From: Octopus vulgaris
Lineage: Eukaryota
NCBI GenBank assembly: GCA_951406725.2
Contig: OX597819.1
Location: 95,604,001 to 95,668,000 of the forward strand
Direction: 5' to 3'
DNA: 64,000 nt
Shown one piece after another: positions 40,001 through 52,000 of the stretch (within the stretch, counting starts at the first letter, position 1; each line of letters opens with the position of its first letter). The notes beneath the pieces were generated by a model. It saw only the letters and a list, made by a program, of their open reading frames with translations, had not been told where the DNA came from and did not search any database. The position numbers and the translations under genes are program-made.

Positions 40001-43000
40001 AAAATGTCAAATGCTAGCACTTTCTCAAACTCAATCTACCTGCAGCCACAGAACCTGATTAATCAATAAGTAAACTTAAGGTGTGCAACTGAATCAGATT
40101 AACGACAATTGCTCTTTCCAAATGCAGTTTACCCATAAACTTAGTTAAATTGGAAACAGTAAAGAGAACTAAATAAGTTCTGAGTTGTTCATACACAGAC
40201 CAAAAAAACCCCCTCATACTGTAATAAGAATGCACAAGGAACCTCTAACAAGAATTGACACAGCTTATCTAAGATTTTCTCTAAAAACAATTTTTGTATC
40301 TTAGAAGTTAATTCGTGTCAAAGTTGTATTTGGGTAATTTTAACCAATCAATGGCACATAAACACCATACGATCGTGGCCGTTCGCCAGCCTCGTCTGGC
40401 ACCTGTGTCGGTGGTACATAAAATCACCCACTACACTCTCAGAGTGGTTGGCGTTAGGAAGGGCATCCAGCTTTAGAAACACTGCCAGATCTGACTGGCC
40501 TGGTGCAGCCTTCGGGCTTCCCAGACCCCAGTTGAACCGTCCAATCCATGCTAGCATGGAAAGCGGACGTTAAACGATGATGATGATGAATGACATGTAT
40601 TCAGCTGAAGAAAGTTACTGTCACTATTTGCGAACAACTTCTGGGTCCATTGACAAAATGAATCAACAGAACCCTTTTTTAATAACCAGAGATGCTTTTA
40701 TAGCAACATATATGAGACTGTGCCTATCTATATAAATACATCCATACATGCACACACATTAATAATAGGCAGAAGTCACAGAGTGACAACAGCCAAATTC
40801 GTGTTTGGTAAGTGCCAATACATGAAACTTTCAGCTCTTGACTAACTAAATTCTGCCAATGATATATACATTACACGTGTAAAAAAAATTTCATCACACA
40901 AACAAACCAATGAAGGAGCCTCTACCTGGTTGATCGACACACTAAAAATAGCAGCCAAAGTAACCCCCTAACGACATCGCACGTCCATAGCATGTAATGT
41001 CCTAGATTATCCCTAAAAAGACGGTTTGCTGAAGGCTGGATTGTCTGATAATGGGTTTGCTGTATTAGAGTGGATTCGAGGCTTAACAGCTAAATCATTA
41101 CTGAGACTGACCAACAACAGAGCCTGTATGTGTTACATGACCTGCCAGAAAAAGTAGCCAAACTTTTTTATATACAGAATAGAAAACCCTCTATCCTGTG
41201 ATATACACATAGATTCCATTATGTCTGGGAAGAAAGACAGAATGGGACATCTTTGATAAGTGCCTACATAAACAACTTCCAAATCTATAAAGCAATGAAT
41301 AACTTGAAACATGTTGCCATTGAAAACTACAAAATGAAGACCGAATATGAACATACTGAGTCAGCAGTTACATAAATGCCCACAATTAATACTAAAGATT
41401 CTTTCCAGCAGACTGACTATACCTATAACATCCAACAAAGTACTGTAAATCATGGCTTGGTGACAATTAGGATTTAAAAAAAAAAAAACTTTGTGTTCAT
41501 TACCTCCATCTTAGCAAAGGTATTGTTTTCAGTCATGCTGTTTGTCCACGGACAAGATATCTCAAGAACAGCAGGATGGATTTGGATGAAACTTTCAGGG
41601 ATGTTTGGCCTCGTGGCTGGCACAAACCAAGTAAATCTCAGGATCAGTCCGGTACCAGACAAGGATTCTGGATTATGTTATATCTACTTTACATGATTAC
41701 GAGCTTACATTAACTTTCAAGTCCTTCTCAATTATCTCCCTTTAGGCTGTAACTATTTTGAATGGTGAAATTGTTAACTGGCTTGTGTTAGATAGTTACT
41801 AAATTTTCTACAGTCATCTTCACATTTCTTGACTACCATTGGGATTGATCAGGAACCAGACAAGGGTTCTGGATTTTTCTTCTTTTTAAACACGGTTGGG
41901 CTCATTTTTATCCTCGTTTGTGAGAGTAAGCTTATTTCAGATACTCCCATCTTAAAAATCTTCTGTAGCTAATCATTGAAAGGATGTTGGTGTTGTTTTG
42001 GCAGAGGTTTACACTCTCTGAGTACTCTTGTTTGAATTCGTTTTCGAAAAGCTACCCACAAAAGCATACCGGTCATCCAATATGCTTATCCTGAATGGAC
42101 AAATACTGAAATGGACCACAAGAAATTCTTAACAGAATCAGAGAAGAAGAACTTATTAATAAAATCTATCACGAACAGCTCTAAACTCTTAAGAACTTGC
42201 CTGAACAGTTTTTCAATATTTTAAAGCAGGAAGCGAATGTGTGATTCACTACGCACTTGTGTGTGGGCTGTTGGGGGGGAAAATGAAAAAAGTGAAATTA
42301 ATGTTAACATGTAAAGAAAGCTTACAAGAATTCCAGTGCTGCCTGGTCCATAACGCTCAGTTTGCATGCCATAACCACCTCTGCCCCCTCCTCCGCCACC
42401 ACAATAGTTGTCATAATTATCACCGTCATACATGGGACCTGGCCCACCATAGCCACCGCCATGGCCACCAGGTGGAGGACCCATTCCAGGACCACCACCA
42501 CCACCTCTTCGCACATCTGGATGATTCCCTAAAATTTGAATTTAAAACAAATAATAGCATCAAATTGATTACTTTCATATATCTTGCATATTAATAAGTA
42601 GTTTAATGATATTAAAAATTATTTCAAATTACACTTAATTAGCTTTCAATATAATGATCCATTGTAAAATAATTGAAGATAAATTTATGTAGAAATTACA
42701 GAACAACCAACTTTATAGCATGAGAAAACATGGCAAGAAAATAAAAAAAGCAGTAAAAACCACAGCCAAAAATTCCAATTACATTTCTATTAAATTATGA
42801 TCCAAAATTCTGCAACAGCTAATTCAAATAAAATAAACAAAAATAAAAACTTTATTACATGTAAAGAACAATTTCTGTAGCAATCAAATCAAAATATCCA
42901 AGACTCAAATGATTAAAAACAATTTCCATGAGTCACATAAGTAACACTACAAATTATTTCATAGCCATCATCCTAATAAAGAGGAACAGAAAATTCAAAT

Positions 43001-46000
43001 TTCTTCAATTAAAGTATGTGTACTTGTTGGCATGCCAGTTGACAATCATATGATAATGAATAACACCCCTACTGCTCTACAAAATTTAAGAAAATAAAAT
43101 ACAACCAAACTTTTTAGTTGACACTTTTGTGACTATATTCCTTAATGAGTAGGCTGCCTATTCGATATAAGATTTTGAAGAAGTTTAGTAATAAGTTACA
43201 AGTTTACTACACTGCTTACCAAATGGAATCGCAGGTTAGTAGCTTTGTTGAGATTGAGTTTCCATCCCAAGGCAAAAATATTCATTGCAACTTAATTTCT
43301 GTCTTAACAGCTTTACCAAATATTTTAAATGTGCTGTTAATACTAACTTGCAACCATTTTATGATAATCTTAGCAGGTAATAAAGTCAGAGTCCTAAATT
43401 ATTTGCATTCTGCTACTGACTGGCAATATTTTTCCTTAAATTTAATTAAGTAGCATGAACCATACTATTTATTCATAAAATATAAAGGAAAATAGTTAGT
43501 TGCTAATCACTATACAAGTGCTTTGAATGAAATGTTTTGTTAAAGCATGCAAGGAAAATTAGAGGCATAATGTGTATGAAGAGTGAAAGCAAGAGAGTAA
43601 TATATGAAAACTAATGCAAAAAGTATTAGCAAATTAGGTTTAAACTAACAATCAAAAATGAAGGAGCGATTGGCAAGACAATAACAATCAAAGCATTATT
43701 TACAGCATAAATCTCCCAAATTTAATTGTAGGAAATTCCTAACAATCATTATCAAAGTATTATGTTCAGGGCTTAGGCAGCCATTAGTTTATCTCAACAC
43801 TTATACTATTTTTGCAGAAGTAGACAATTTCAAATATATATATGTATATATATAAATAAATAAAAAAAAAAATCTAAATCAGCCATTATACGAAAACATT
43901 TCCAATACTAAATAAAATTTTTGCAGAAACAGTAGGCTCACTCAGCTATGTACAGTGTAAAACTCAAAATTTGCACATATGTAACAATCCAATAATTTAA
44001 AACACTTCAGAGAAAAACTCCATTTCTTAATAGATCTACAAAAGAGGGCAAACTCAATCAAAGAGTTTTAATATCAAGAGTAATTTTTTTGTTTATATAA
44101 AAAACAATCTCATAAGCTGATACCAAACATTTTAAAATATCAATACCAACTTTCTCTCTGAATTCACTTTCATGTTCAAACATAAAAGAACCAGAGCAGC
44201 TGTATTCATAAAAAAACCCATTTCCATTTATATTTTATGCATGTATGTATGTATCTAAAAGAATATGTACCATATTTATTTGAATATAGGTGTGAGAGAG
44301 CCAATAAGCTGAGGGGGTGGCAAACAGTACAAGAGCTGCCACATTTAATATATTTATATATATAGATATATATATATACACACACAATACAAAAACAATG
44401 AAGACGACACTCATAAAAAGAAAAGCTATCATTTTAATGCTAACTATATCTTGCCCAACCCAAGAAAGATTTTGAAAGTGTTAATGCCAGCCAAAGGTAT
44501 AGTTAAGTCAAAACATACTAGGTAGCACAACAGTAACTTTACAACATCTTAGATGACACGACTAGCAAGCACTAGAAAAGCAATCATCCAAGACAAAATG
44601 GAGGAAGAAGAAAAAAAAAAATAAAAAGCAAATTACCCAAGAGTCCAACTTCTTTAGATATGAAAAATAAACAAATGAATAAAATGAAGCAAATCAACAT
44701 TATGGCAAATTAGAGTATAAGAATTAATGATTGGATGACAATGTGAATAAATTAAATTCAGCAAGCAAATAATGTAATATGAAATGGTGCTAATAATTCA
44801 TTTTTGTACAAAATTACTTGTCTTTCAATCTGAATACTAAAATTTGTTTCACTTTAACCCTTAACTACATTTTATTTTCTTCAATTTGGAGAAAACATCT
44901 TAAATGGTTGCTAAAAAAAAATCTTAAAAAATGCAAGATTCAATACATTTTGCTAACTCTAATAGAAGGTAAAAAGACTAAGTGGGAGGGGAGAAAATTA
45001 CAAGCTTGACAGGACAAGGGGTCCAAAAATTATTTCAGGTCAATTAGCTACAACATAAAGGCTGTATGTTTTATAGTTTGAAAACCAACCAGAGATACCA
45101 AATCCACAAATGGAGAAGAAAAATATCACACAGGGACTAAATGATTGTTAAAACCTACATTGTAATATAGTTTAAGGATGCAGACAGTTTGAAGAAAATA
45201 TCTGCACTAATAGAAAGAAGTCTGGAGAACGGCCCATAAGGCCAAGATATATTGAAAAAATAACAGCAGCCTGCCATGCCATTCAACAAGCATTTTCACA
45301 GTAAACAACTCACACCAACAGATAACCACAAATAGTTGCCATATAGCAATTTTTAGATAATTAAAAAAAAAAAAAAAGAATTTTTTTTTAAAAACGCATA
45401 TATTCAATCACTTTCAATACACTTGTGACCAAGTAGCACTCTGCATTATACAGGACACTACTTTTCATTATCGAAAACTGGCACCGAAATGTTTAAAAGA
45501 GAGGTATTGCTTAAAATAAATTCTAGTAACCAAGAAAGATAGAGAAGCTCTATTTTTAAATATTATGCAACTCAAAACTAGAGCATTATGAGATGTGACA
45601 ACAACTAAGAAGAAAATGGAGCTTTAGAACAATACTTCACCTGGTGATTGAGGACACTCACCATAGGGAGTGGGCCCTGGTGCATAGCGCGGATCTTGCA
45701 GCAAAGGCTGATTTTTAGCAACCACAGGACTCTTACCTGAAACAAAGTGACACAGGTGAGATAAGTCTCAGAGCAAGCAAGGAAAGCGGCAGACAGTGAA
45801 GTTACTAGTTTGCCAAACAAACCGCAGATTAACTGACTGCTGTTGCCTTTTAGTATACTATGGTTTTAACTTTCTCAGCTGAAAGAATTACTAAGAATTT
45901 GGCTGGCACAAGATTGGTCAACATAAATTACCAACCATTTGAATAACTTTCAGGAAATGTGGCAATGTAAATCTAACTAAATTAACTCCTCAATCTGAAT

Positions 46001-49000
46001 CATTATGAAACAAAGCTTTAGTGTAAATTAGAAATGAGAGAAAAAAAAAAAAGAAATTAAAACCCCCCGTAAATTAGGAAACGCGTTAAAATGTTAATAT
46101 CATAAAAACTAAGATGAATGGGAAGAGTTAATTTGCAGATTTAGTAAGCGAATTAGCTAAACCAGAGATAATGTATGAATATATAAAATCAAGCACAAGT
46201 TGTGCATTCTCATAAATCGAACTATTTCAACCTCACCTACGCCTTAAGAAAAAATGTTAATATATCCAAAGGAATTTTAAAATTTAACCAGTTCATGCAC
46301 TTATGTAATAAAACAGCTTGCTTTGTGTGTCCTCCAGAAAGAAAATCTACATTCCAAGAATGTAGTAATCTCTCTTAAAAGTCCTGTGGTGAAGGGAGAG
46401 GAGAGGTGGATGAAGAAAAAAAAGCCCAGTTGCAAGATCCGGCAAATATCAATTCTGTACAAGGAAAGTAACTCACTACAGCCTGGGAATCTGACTACAG
46501 TGGTTTGGACTATTATGTACGACACAGAAAAGGGAGTGGAAGAAGAAGAAAAAAAATCAACACATGATCCCACACACAAAAACAAAACATAACTGGCAAT
46601 TTTCTACACAACTTACCAATGAGCTGGATGGAAAACTCACCCCAGCAAAATAAACTAATGCATTTTTTTTTTTTTGGTATACATACATTTTAAAAAATAA
46701 ATGGAAAGGAGTTCTCAATTCATAGTTCATTTAATAAAAGTGAAACCCATTGAATGTGAAGAAGTCCAAGTGAAATTTTTATATTTACAAAAATACAAAA
46801 AATTAAATCCAAATATTTGGAATAGGGAAAGTTTGTCAGATGCCTGAGATTATTAGATTTAGATTTCAATGGATCAGCATCGAAGTAATCGTATGGGGGA
46901 AGGTAGGGAATGATTGAGCAGTCACTGCATATATTACTTTAAATTATTTTGATCCACATTACACTTAATTACCTATGCATAAAAAAATTTTAAATTAGAA
47001 TAGTTTTCAACTAGCAATTTAGATGTAATGTAATAAATGTAAATTTTCAACATTTCACTGGGTTTATTCTGCTTACACTACTTAGAATCAGCCTACGTGC
47101 GTTTGTGAAAATGTACAGATCTTGCTAGAGTACAAATATTTTAGTTATCTTTTCAATACAGTAAAACCAGATGCAGTGTTCTGTACACAAACTGAATTTT
47201 CTTGTATTTCCAAACTATTACTTGTTGCAGTTAAAAACACAAAACTGGTGATAGCAGCAGCAGTCAGTCAGTCAGCGTATGGTAATCAAATGATGACTAC
47301 ACTTCTTCCATTTGCTCTAAAACGTTCCAGCATTATAAAAGATTAATGTATGAAAATATTAAATTGAAGGAAATAAATATCTCATTATAGTCTAACCTTT
47401 TCTGTTTTAATGTTAGATGGTAATGTCAATTTTTTGAAAGCAAGCCAATATCTTAAATGGCTTCAGAGAATGAAAATTAGTAATCCAAAAGGAAAAACAG
47501 GAAATGTATAATAGATATATGGAAAACTTAAATATTAAAAAAAATAAATATTATTTTTAATAAAAGACATCCTGGAAAATAAGGAGAAAAATAAAAAATC
47601 TACCAGTTGATTTTCTGGTGAGATAACAGCAATGGAAGGAGCCATGGTGATTTGGTTAAAGCCAGAAGTAGCTGTTGGTCAATGAAGTAGTTGAGCCTGA
47701 TATGGTTCAATCAACACGATGCTGCTCACATTCTCCTCCTCCTCCTCATCCAGCAGTAGTAGTAGTAGTAGCAGGAGGGCCGAGCCTGCACTGGCCTACA
47801 CCCTGTATAATGCACACAGAATCACAGGTCAGTAAACTAACCAGACTTGGTTGTAGGAAGGCAAACAAGCGTAGGAGTCAGACAGATGGATGGGTTTACA
47901 GGGTATAGTGACACCTTGTGTGGACCTGGCCGCTTTATGTTTTGTTCTGTGCGGTGGTGAGTATCTGCTTGGTAGTGATGGTGGTGGTGATGATATTGTA
48001 TTTTAAGTTTGGTTGATGTACTTGTCTGACTGACTGAATAGTGCTTCTTCTGTGTATGGGAAGTCTGTCTGCAGGTGGAGAATGCTCCAGTCTGTGACCT
48101 GTGACGGTCAGATGAGTAATGTGGATGTTGATATCTTTCTGTGCTTGAATTTATTCTGCAACTTTTTCTATTGTTCTAGATGTAGAATAGCAGCTTCTGT
48201 TTGTAATTTTTGCTGGATAGAAAGGTGGAACATTTACAAATTCTGAATATTAGGTAACATGTCCACTTCTTTTCTACGTTGTATGTGGCTGACTTGTTTT
48301 AATGGGTTTAATAAAAACCCAAATGTTAGTGTAATGATTTTAAAGTTTGTTTTCAAATGGATTTTCTCAAGATGGATGACTTGTCTTCATGTTGGGGATT
48401 TTGGAAAGGATGGCATCTCAGACAGCAAACAACTTGCTTCATAATCAACTGTTTAAAAAAGGGCTGGCAAGATTTTTTTAATGTTCAAAATATATATATA
48501 AAAAAAAATAAGGGGGAAATCACTTTTAACAACTTGGCTGAATGTAAAAAGCTAGTGCAGAATAAAACAAGTGAATAACTTCACAAACAAGTGGTTTCAC
48601 TGGGCACTAACCTACTACCATCTTTCAGACAATAGTAGTTCCCTGCCAGCACATGATCATTTTAATTCATTTACTGAGAATACAGATGATTGTGCTTCAT
48701 AAAATGTGCATGTTTTGTAACGAAATTTGGAATGTTAAGTCTATGATACGATATAAAATGTTTTGTAATTGAAAGTTTATTTAGTTTCAATATGACTGAG
48801 ACAAATGTTTTGTATGTTATCTGAAATGGTCACTTGTTTGTATTTGTATGCATGCATTTTTCCTCCCCTAATAACCACTCCTCAAAAAGATACTAACAAA
48901 CAATAGAAAGATAATTTAAAGTTAATGACTGAAGAAGCCCATGGCCAAATTTAAAACCACCTACCTTAGAATAATTTATTAGTATACCACAACCAAACCA

Positions 49001-52000
49001 ATCCATTAAAAATTACACCAATTAAAGAAATTTGACTAGCAGATTTCCCATCACTGGGCTATCTGCTAAACAAAGGTGACAGATTCCCTAAGTTCTGCAA
49101 AATGTAATGGTATTGTTGTTCACTAGCACCCTTATGGAATCAAAGGAAAAACTCGCAAACTATCCCAATTAAGCAACAAGAGAACAGAATTACTCTAAAC
49201 AAGACCAGAAGACATCACTAAGGAACCAAGATAACAAATAATTTCATTGTTTTGGTTGCTTAGTGCTAATTTAAGAAAGAGTATGTTAGTAGCAACTATT
49301 GTTACATTAAAACTACAGCCATGCCTTTGGCTTGCAATATTGAAACATTAAATAGGTTAGAATTAAGCAAGTTACGGTCATTTTCAACTGGATAGTGCGT
49401 ATGTTAACCAGGATTACCACCAGTTCTAGAAAGGAAAATAAGAGTGCTGGTGTCCATCAAATTTAAAATGTTTAAAATTGCATCTTACCGAGAGAAGGAT
49501 TGCTGTAGTCCCAACTTTCATTGTCATTTCTGACAACATTCAATTTTGTAGGCTGATAAAAAAAACAAATTAAAAAACCCATTGAACTGAATTTATTAAG
49601 AACAAAAATCTAGACCATAAGATATTTAAAACAAAATTCTTTACACGACATATCTGATAATCACCCTAAGTTGCAAAAGCATTGAATGAATCACAACACA
49701 AACAATCCTGCAATGAGGGTACTTACCCACAAATGAAACATCGAAACTTAAATTCACTTTCAAAAGCCAACCAATTAAAAATTTCAGAATTAATTGAAGC
49801 AAGATCTATAACAGTGAATATATTTTCTAATACTGAATTCAAAACTTGAAAATTTACCTTTGCATATTCAATCTTGAGTGTACAGCAACCAGAGTAAATG
49901 TCTGCACCATTCAGAGCCTGCTTTGCACGTTTTGCTTGATCAACAGTTTCAAATGTACGAATGGTTAAGGAATACCAACTACAAAATATACATTTTATAA
50001 AACAATTGTGCTATTTTAACATACTTTCCTATGCCCTCATGGGTCGGTTTACTGAGGTTGATTTTCTACAGCAGAATGATCTTCCTGATTTCCAAACACG
50101 GTAATATTTTCCTGTAGCCAGACATGTTTCCACAGCAAATTGGAAATGAATAATACTGCTTGTATAATAACTACCAGTGATGTCAAAAGAAGCAGAGACA
50201 AACATTACACTCAAACAGGCTTTTTTGCAATTTCTGCAGCAATACCAAATCTACTCACAAGGATTTGGTCAGTACAGGGCTACAGAAAATGAGACCTGCA
50301 CAAAGTGCTATGCATTGAGATTGAACCTGAAATCATGCAAATGGACTTCCAATTTCTAAATAACACAGTAATGCGTACACACAGAGAAAATGTCAAATTA
50401 ACAGAGTTGCTACAGTGATCACTAAAATACTTTGTCCAACTGCACTTGGGTCTAAATCTTGTCTAAGCCAACTTTGCCTTTATCTTGGGTTAAATTACCA
50501 GATTTGGCTGAGTTGAAATCCTGCCTCCAGCCAGGATTGTTGAGTTCTTAAGCAAATACCCAGCTATTAGAGTTTAATAAATGTCAGTATATTTTTGTCC
50601 TGTGCACTCAGCATATGAACACATTACACAATGTAAAAACTCTCAAATGTCAAAGAACTTCTAAAAATAATTGATATTTATTTTACAAATGGCCCTATCA
50701 AATAAGCATCTTACCTAACAATTTATACAAATTCACCCCAAGCATTTAATCATAACAGTACAACAGTGGAAAAAACTCATTCCAGTGAAAACAGTAACAT
50801 TAGCTTTATGCAAGTAAATAAGGAGAATTAAGTGCCTTTAAAGTCAGAATGCAAACAACCAATAGTTAATTTTAATTTATTGAAAGCTATGTTCACTTTG
50901 TAAAATAAGGATATTCAACCATTGCTTGGACACCATTCTTTTTGAAGATAACAATTCTTTGTACTTGCCCATATGGAGAACTGATTGTATGCATCACTTC
51001 CTGGAAAATTAAATACAAAGATATTTGTAATGGTTATTAAACAAATGCCCAATTAGAATAGAAAATATTAAAATGGTTACATACCACAGTGATCGGATAT
51101 TGTGGATTTAAAATGGTAAAGAGCAAAATATGGTTTGCAGTCCGCATATCTTCTGGGCCACTACAAACAAAAGAGATGGATTATATATATATATATATAT
51201 ATTAAACTTGTAAAATATGTAGTTTTTCTGTACCCCTTTTTAACAAAATACATTGTTATTTACAACAATACTTTTAAGTGGCCTTAAATCATCTTTATGA
51301 AATTATACCCACAGTAAACAGACCCGATATTTTCTAAAATATATATAAAGCTTACCCTGGTCTCTGGATCTTCTGACTGGTAGAGAAATTAAAGAAAGCA
51401 GGGTGACCACTAACATAAAGTTGATTGGACTGAACATAGTTCACACACTCAGTCGCTCCGGCTATATCCTATACAATAATAAATAATTTCCTCACAATTA
51501 AATATACACGATATGAAAAAAAAAATTAAAAATATAACTCAATTTGATGAATGATAAAATACCATCTAATCAACAAATACAAATTTCAATATTTCCAATG
51601 GATTTAGTAAAATCGCTCAACTCACCTCAAATTCAACCAGAGCTTGTCTTTTCTTTGGCATCATGATAACATAACTGTAATAGAGAGGGGGAAGTGATTG
51701 GTATACGAATGTAACATTTACAGTATTAACACAATCACACGCGAAGCCTTAAAGCAGAAAGGCTCATAAATATCAATAAACTTACCTAATGCACCCGAAG
51801 TTTTGCAAGGTATCAACCAAATCTTGCTCTACCACAGTCTCAGACAGACCACGGACATGCACCACGGGTGATGGTGATGGTTTGTGAGGATCTTCCATTA
51901 ATTTATCCTGTCAAATTAAAGAAAAAAGTCCAATATTTAAATGCTTCATATCAGTATATTGTTCACAAAAATTTTGGAAAATTTGATTATTCGATAAATT

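Follow-up and report, generated by a model that had tools for sequence, protein, structure and literature searches.

Autoregulation of human HNRNPL through exon 6A was reportedly described by Rossbach et al. in 2009. In the human gene, hnRNP L binds upstream of an exon in intron 6 that carries a premature termination codon (PTC) and promotes its inclusion, according to extracts of three reviews (PMC7547044, PMC6884704, PMC7764535); all sources given here by PMC number are cited from extracts. The 70-nt human PTC exon rises on knockdown of UPF1 (PMC6547761, Table 1). CA sites upstream of cassette exons usually repress them (PMC7547044). Mammalian hnRNP L binds CA-rich RNA (PMC3384337), and binding to a CA-rich motif has been reported for the fly orthologue Smooth (PMC5694756). 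The poison exon of HNRNPLL is cross-regulated by hnRNP L (PMC6884704, PMC7764535).

Conservation of such loops across lineages has precedents in Smndc1 (PMC11357089) and RPS9 (PMC3315480). Smndc1/SPF30 is a different gene whose poison exon is likewise autoregulatory and occupies one and the same intron position in lineages as distant as mammals and plants; both NMD and autoregulation were tested there (PMC11357089). For RPS9, a ribosomal protein, the feedback logic is kept while the form of unproductive splicing differs by lineage, the forms being backed by experiment or ESTs (PMC3315480). No report of an invertebrate hnRNP L poison exon was found in the literature searched, the original paper of Rossbach et al. 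and supplementary files lying outside this scope; the extracts of PMC2689934, PMC12179342, and PMC13247117 do not treat one. Searches for hnRNP L together with cephalopods and splicing found no literature, and no paper on the regulation of the short Smooth isoforms was found in the literature searched.

The exon described here, from the hnRNP L gene of Octopus vulgaris, resembles human exon 6A in that it is a PTC-bearing cassette exon of the same gene, located after the exon that ends RRM2 and with a CA-rich element upstream. The octopus exon is longer (199 nt as compared to 70 nt), contains the stop within itself, and is flanked by an in-frame alternative exon 9 and a microexon, unlike exon 6A. 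No sequence similarity between the two is shown, and dependence on NMD and on the protein is putative in octopus.

The octopus hnRNP L gene

The gene is located on contig OX597819.1, in a stretch of 64,000 nt that was analysed as a whole and is called the window. All coordinates are window positions, and all features of the gene lie on the minus strand. An open reading frame for 565 amino acids runs from 54807 to 37002 and stays open to its stop; it is divided into 17 coding exons, numbered as in the preliminary description, an earlier reading made from the sequence alone. The protein shares 98.6% identity with O. sinensis isoform X4 and, isoform gaps aside, has zero mismatches to O. vulgaris protein P0024. 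Its matches among solved structures are domains of hnRNP L and LL, and identity to primate hnRNP L is 69% for RRM1, 72% for RRM2, and 51% for RRM3-4. The gene is an orthologue of hnRNP L whose protein contains four RRMs, in agreement with the earlier identification. Exon 8 (49552-49489, 64 nt) encodes the end of RRM2, and its donor can be spliced to the poison exon, to exon 9, to the microexon, or to exon 10. Intron 8 (49488-45737), the 3.75-kb intron of the preliminary description, measures 3752 nt, follows RRM2, and is the longest intron of the coding region.

The gene has two U12-type introns, intron 6 (50914-49955) and intron 13 (39133-38867). Intron 6 is of the AT-AC type, and its joint is seen in run contigs. 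Intron 13 begins with ATATCCTTT, and the frame demands an AA end rather than AC, which makes it a non-canonical AT-AA intron. A 985-nt contig of run X19 (window 50944-49982), with 65 other letters and 76 gaps, spans the whole of U12 intron 6 and is consistent with retention of this minor intron in a related species or with DNA in the run. In O. sinensis, a truncated hnRNP L-like copy of 201 aa (P0003, 85% identity) is located on a different chromosome-scale contig and is probably a decayed duplicate or a retrocopy.

A stop-bearing exon in intron 8

Four public runs (X5, X11, X19, and X21) were aligned to window positions 42200-51500, and splice joints were read from their contigs. No run is recorded as RNA, and spliced joints served as the sign that a run contains RNA. 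X11 (study P3) and X5 (study P2), both from organism A, also carry constitutive junctions and therefore contain spliced RNA; they cover introns too, so unspliced RNA or DNA is present in them. X19 (related species) and X21 are without cover of the exon or of the CA-rich block, and the evidence for the exon is that of X11 and X5. We regard contig depth as not usable for an inclusion level.

A 199-nt exon is spliced into some octopus hnRNP L transcripts and brings an early stop. In both X11 and X5, which belong to different studies, contigs connect exon 8 with position 47802, with removal of 49488-47803. One contig of one run, X11, joins 47604 to exon 9 with removal of 47603-45737. The raw joints (47801/49488 in X11 and X5, 45733/47601 in X11) both show CT..AC on the plus strand. 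The two joints of X11 fix the bounds of the exon at 47802-47604 and splice it to exon 9; it is a cassette exon in the intron that follows the RRM2-ending exon. The junctions 49489^47802 and 47604^45736 had been predicted from the sequence alone, and the contigs carry both at these coordinates, with canonical ends. Among the joints listed, over 9.3 kb, this is the only stop-bearing internal exon. Joints 44266/47751 and 44627/47755 were rejected as foreign repeats with non-canonical ends and short sides at a TAC run.

The exon begins after the acceptor ACAG (47806-47803) and ends at the donor CTG/GTAGAT. The branch-point consensus TACTGAC is located at 47834-47828, placing the branch A 26 nt before the end of the acceptor; a looser branch-point pattern has four occurrences in intron 8. 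In the incoming frame the exon adds 24 residues and then stops at a TGA (47728-47726), giving a 253-aa protein with RRM1-2 only. The preliminary description had named this same branch point, acceptor, and stop; the string it quoted contains one A too many after GAAC (five instead of the four in the window). Its two candidate donors, giving exons of 73 or 199 nt, are both 3n+1 and so not multiples of 3, as it stated, and the 199-nt form is the one seen; the 73-nt form (donor 47729) is absent among the joints listed (15 of 16). The premature stop brought by inclusion lies far ahead of the following exon junctions, of which there are at least nine. The 50-55 nt rule of NMD is established, and the stop, 122 nt before the 3′ junction of the exon, satisfies it. 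Retention of intron 8 would likewise run into a stop immediately. No mollusc protein with the tail of the octopus poison exon was found among the best 120 of 375 truncated-protein matches listed, and no truncated member among the 15 listed of 20 in the octopus protein cluster.

The exon could instead serve mainly as an alternative last exon, with read-through of its weak donor and intronic polyadenylation leading to a stable mRNA for the 253-aa RRM1-2 protein. Record 27 of X5, in which exon 8 is joined at 47801 and the sequence continues past the donor into the downstream intron as far as 46988, would agree with this, as would an AATAAA at 47068 and the annotated alternative ends of Drosophila Smooth, where 21 of the 24 short drosophilid proteins among the 120 best listed of 375 matches depart from the main frame immediately past the equivalent of exon 8. 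However, X11 joins the donor at 47604 to exon 9. The X5 contig stops at a polymorphic base (46987) and cover goes on beyond it, RNA ends being invisible in contigs, and partly spliced pre-mRNA accounts for this contig equally well. The hexamer is one of 11 AATAAA/ATTAAA in the A+T-rich intron 8. We consider a last exon improbable as the main form; it could still be controlled by hnRNP L and coexist with a form degraded by NMD.

The CA-rich block

A CA-rich block (48420-47850, core 48129-47930), the putative landing site of hnRNP L, adjoins the poison exon on its upstream side, with the core 127-327 nt upstream of the acceptor. Between 48420 and 47830, the A+C content of the sense strand is 0.63, as compared to 0.46 and 0.45 in the flanking parts of the intron, and CA occurs 13.4 times per 100 nt (6.6 and 6.0 in the flanking parts). 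The core is the top 200-nt window of the gene, with 67 CA+AC; the mean of the sense strand of the gene is 20.5 (sd 7.7), and the next-best window has 43. None of 200 dinucleotide-preserving shuffles of intron 8 reached 67 (maximum 50). Of the 200-nt windows on either strand of the 64-kb window, 0.67% have 67 or more; the four peaks above the core are CA/TA microsatellite-like (share of distinct 5-mers 0.12-0.68), and the core (0.79) is the highest CA peak in complex sequence. The CA richness proposed in the preliminary description thus stands as composition, while the match to mammalian SELEX motifs (CACA/ACAC/TACA/CACC) is borderline, with a score of 25 for the block (p=0.050 against shuffles) and 27 for the antisense of intron 8. 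From the specificity of the family and the identity of the RRMs, the block is likely to be an hnRNP L landing site. A repeat origin of the block was considered and rejected, with no second copy within the 64-kb window and no tandem array found by TRF; run contigs cover the block as single matches, without repeat pile-up.

Splicing noise was considered as a second explanation, in which a degenerate patch of trinucleotide repeats with weak splice sites yields a neutral cryptic exon and the CA richness would be no more than background in a genome rich in repeats. The exon does contain short TAC and AGG runs and the block CAT and CAC runs, other CA-rich windows exist within the 64 kb, and no conservation within cephalopods is shown, X19 having no such joint but also no cover there. 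Against this, the only stop-bearing internal exon among the listed joints appears in two studies and sits directly behind the top CA block of the gene, a block that is single-copy and of high complexity, in an intron that matches that of vertebrate exon 6A; CA blocks also recur around exon 8 in other invertebrates (see below). We regard noise as a still less probable account than a last exon.

In-frame splicing around exon 9

Downstream of the poison exon, several alternatives keep the frame. Exon 9 (45736-45641) consists of 75 nt (45736-45662) and an in-frame extension of 21 nt to 45641, and it can be skipped in frame. A 15-nt in-frame microexon (44651-44637), missing from the exon numbering used here, is located between exons 9 and 10. 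It is joined directly to exon 8 or to the extended exon 9 (X5, X19), as read from joints 42529/49489 with 14 letters between (X5, X19) and 44651/45641 (X19). Skipping of exon 9, its extension, and the microexon all match annotated octopus isoforms, and four or more in-frame splice paths run through this part of the gene. The microexon is present in isoforms of Octopus and Argonauta and absent in the three listed isoforms of Sepia. At 45742-45730, exon 9 opens directly past its acceptor with GTAAGAG, a donor-like string that repeats the start of intron 8; this overlap is possibly a recursive splice site that would aid the skipping of exon 9. In L054, one of the invertebrate loci described below, the exon following exon 8 likewise opens with GTAAA.

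Other hnRNP L loci

Truncated hnRNP L proteins of birds and mammals and truncated LL proteins of mammals, with recurring foreign tails, exit the frame 3 residues past the end of octopus exon 8, an offset that lies in the linker. We infer that these proteins would be products of exon 6A and that octopus intron 8 matches the human intron that contains it; the position after RRM2, given in the preliminary description as that of exon 6A, agrees with this. Judged from the recurring tails, the PTC exon of HNRNPLL is at the same intron position; HNRNPLL, however, is a vertebrate paralogue under cross-regulation, whereas self-regulation is what is proposed for the octopus gene. As to common descent with the vertebrate exon, 693 nt of one fish-like intron (L068) were compared with octopus intron 8 and show no similarity to it. 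The short isoforms of Drosophila smooth resemble the octopus case in having an alternative exon after the exon 8 equivalent and truncation after RRM2; they differ in being annotated as coding ends. Such annotated short isoforms (P0080-P0107), ending soon after RRM2, occur in many Drosophila species, with tails that are related across species.

A scan of metagenome contigs gave 80 hnRNP L loci, of which the 10 that contain exon 8, an intron, and the coding exon that follows were counted. L065, L068, L077, L078, and L080 end inside the intron and were left out, as were the rest, which are transcripts or are devoid of the intron or of exon 8. In 6 of the 10 (L049, L051, L052, L053, L054, L059), the gene has its top 100-nt CA window within the intron that follows exon 8, as compared to 2.1 loci expected on the basis of length (p=0.006); in two more (L045, L050), the window lies in the intron that precedes exon 8. 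Either flanking intron thus holds it in 8 of 10 (p=0.001), a hypothesis widened after looking; the antisense control gives 3 of 10. When each related pair is represented by a single locus, the counts become 3/6 after exon 8 (p=0.11) and 4/6 for either flank (p=0.065), which are not significant. We regard the cross-species CA signal around exon 8 as suggestive only. The top window does not flank exon 8 in L060 and L062; L060, with a score of 24 and an intron of 89 nt, was counted as a miss. No CA clustering was found in the partial introns of L065, L068, L077, and L080 (p 0.22-0.73). The CA peak of L069/L070 was set aside as a plain microsatellite.

Two loci with 86% protein identity, L051 and L053, have in common a CA-rich non-coding block of about 135 nt in the intron after exon 8, with frame-breaking indels (local score 167, maximum 31 in 60 shuffles). 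Downstream of it, 160-180 nt before exon 9, are candidate exons with lengths of 45 nt and 68 (or 41) nt, which use a common donor and would each introduce a stop in the incoming frame. The bounds of the CA block (L051 7656-7830, L053 1036-1215) share an acceptor-like TTGCAG/GTG and a donor-like CAG/GTGCGC, and the block itself may be a second alternative exon. In L045 (8900-9140) and L050 (10600-10827), a CA-rich tract stands directly before the 64-nt exon 8 and replaces or crowds the pyrimidine tract; exon 8 of L045 has almost no pyrimidine tract. These two loci are candidates for an essential-exon form of the same loop, since skipping of exon 8 would shift the frame. RPS9 (PMC3315480) offers a model for a CA tract whose side of exon 8, downstream or upstream, differs between loci. 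FastTree phylogenies group L051 and L053, with weak support, with lophotrochozoans other than those of the main mollusc clade, and place L045, L049, L050, and L054 in a clade that contains arthropods; phyla are not firmly assigned. Octopus intron 8 has no DNA similarity to six other introns (those of L051 and L053 and four partial ones, with no cephalopod or bivalve among them), the scores of 25-28 lying within the range of shuffles.

Discussion

Our data make it probable that the poison exon is an autoregulatory switch from productive splicing to NMD in octopus hnRNP L. In this mechanism, hnRNP L would bind the CA block on its own pre-mRNA, as the specificity of the family suggests, and binding would favour the weak exon behind the block. 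The stop-bearing mRNA would then be degraded by NMD, and the level of the hnRNP L protein would limit itself. As upstream CA sites usually repress, the activating direction of the second step is borrowed from the human gene alone. That the exon is regulated otherwise than as a negative loop of hnRNP L (through repression of the exon by hnRNP L, a role of the block in the in-frame choices downstream, between exon 9, the extended exon 9, and the microexon, or a different CA-binding protein as its reader) draws on the general repressive effect of upstream CA sites (PMC7547044), on the number of in-frame paths in the region, and on the CA tract that abuts the acceptor of exon 8 itself in L045 and L050, but we give it the least weight of all, because the block is 2.2 kb from exon 9 and at least 1.1 kb from exon 8 yet adjoins the stop-bearing exon, and the only tested case of such a layout, human exon 6A, is one of activation (PMC7547044, PMC6884704, PMC7764535).

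The mechanism itself is not new. The autoregulatory switch would work like human exon 6A, whose defining features are found in octopus where they could be assessed; common descent of the exons is not shown. Whether the candidate loop is ancient or convergent is not settled, as the position of the intron is common to the lineages and its sequence is not. Tentatively, we entertain the possibility that the bilaterian ancestor, which lived at least 550 million years ago, already had self-regulation of hnRNP L through a CA-rich element beside the last exon of RRM2, and that this was kept while its parts turned over. Under that reading, vertebrates, octopus, and other lophotrochozoans would have a poison exon preceded by a CA block, flies would have an exon that truncates the protein, and in one lineage of the arthropod-containing clade (L045, L050) the CA tract would lie on the acceptor of exon 8.

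The hnRNP L loop is textbook splicing-factor homeostasis, and the literature found describes it only in mammals. The octopus exon, together with the CA blocks near the same exon elsewhere, makes it possible to address directly whether such loops are inherited or have been invented anew. It also provides a ready endogenous reporter of NMD in cephalopods, whose RNA processing draws wide interest.
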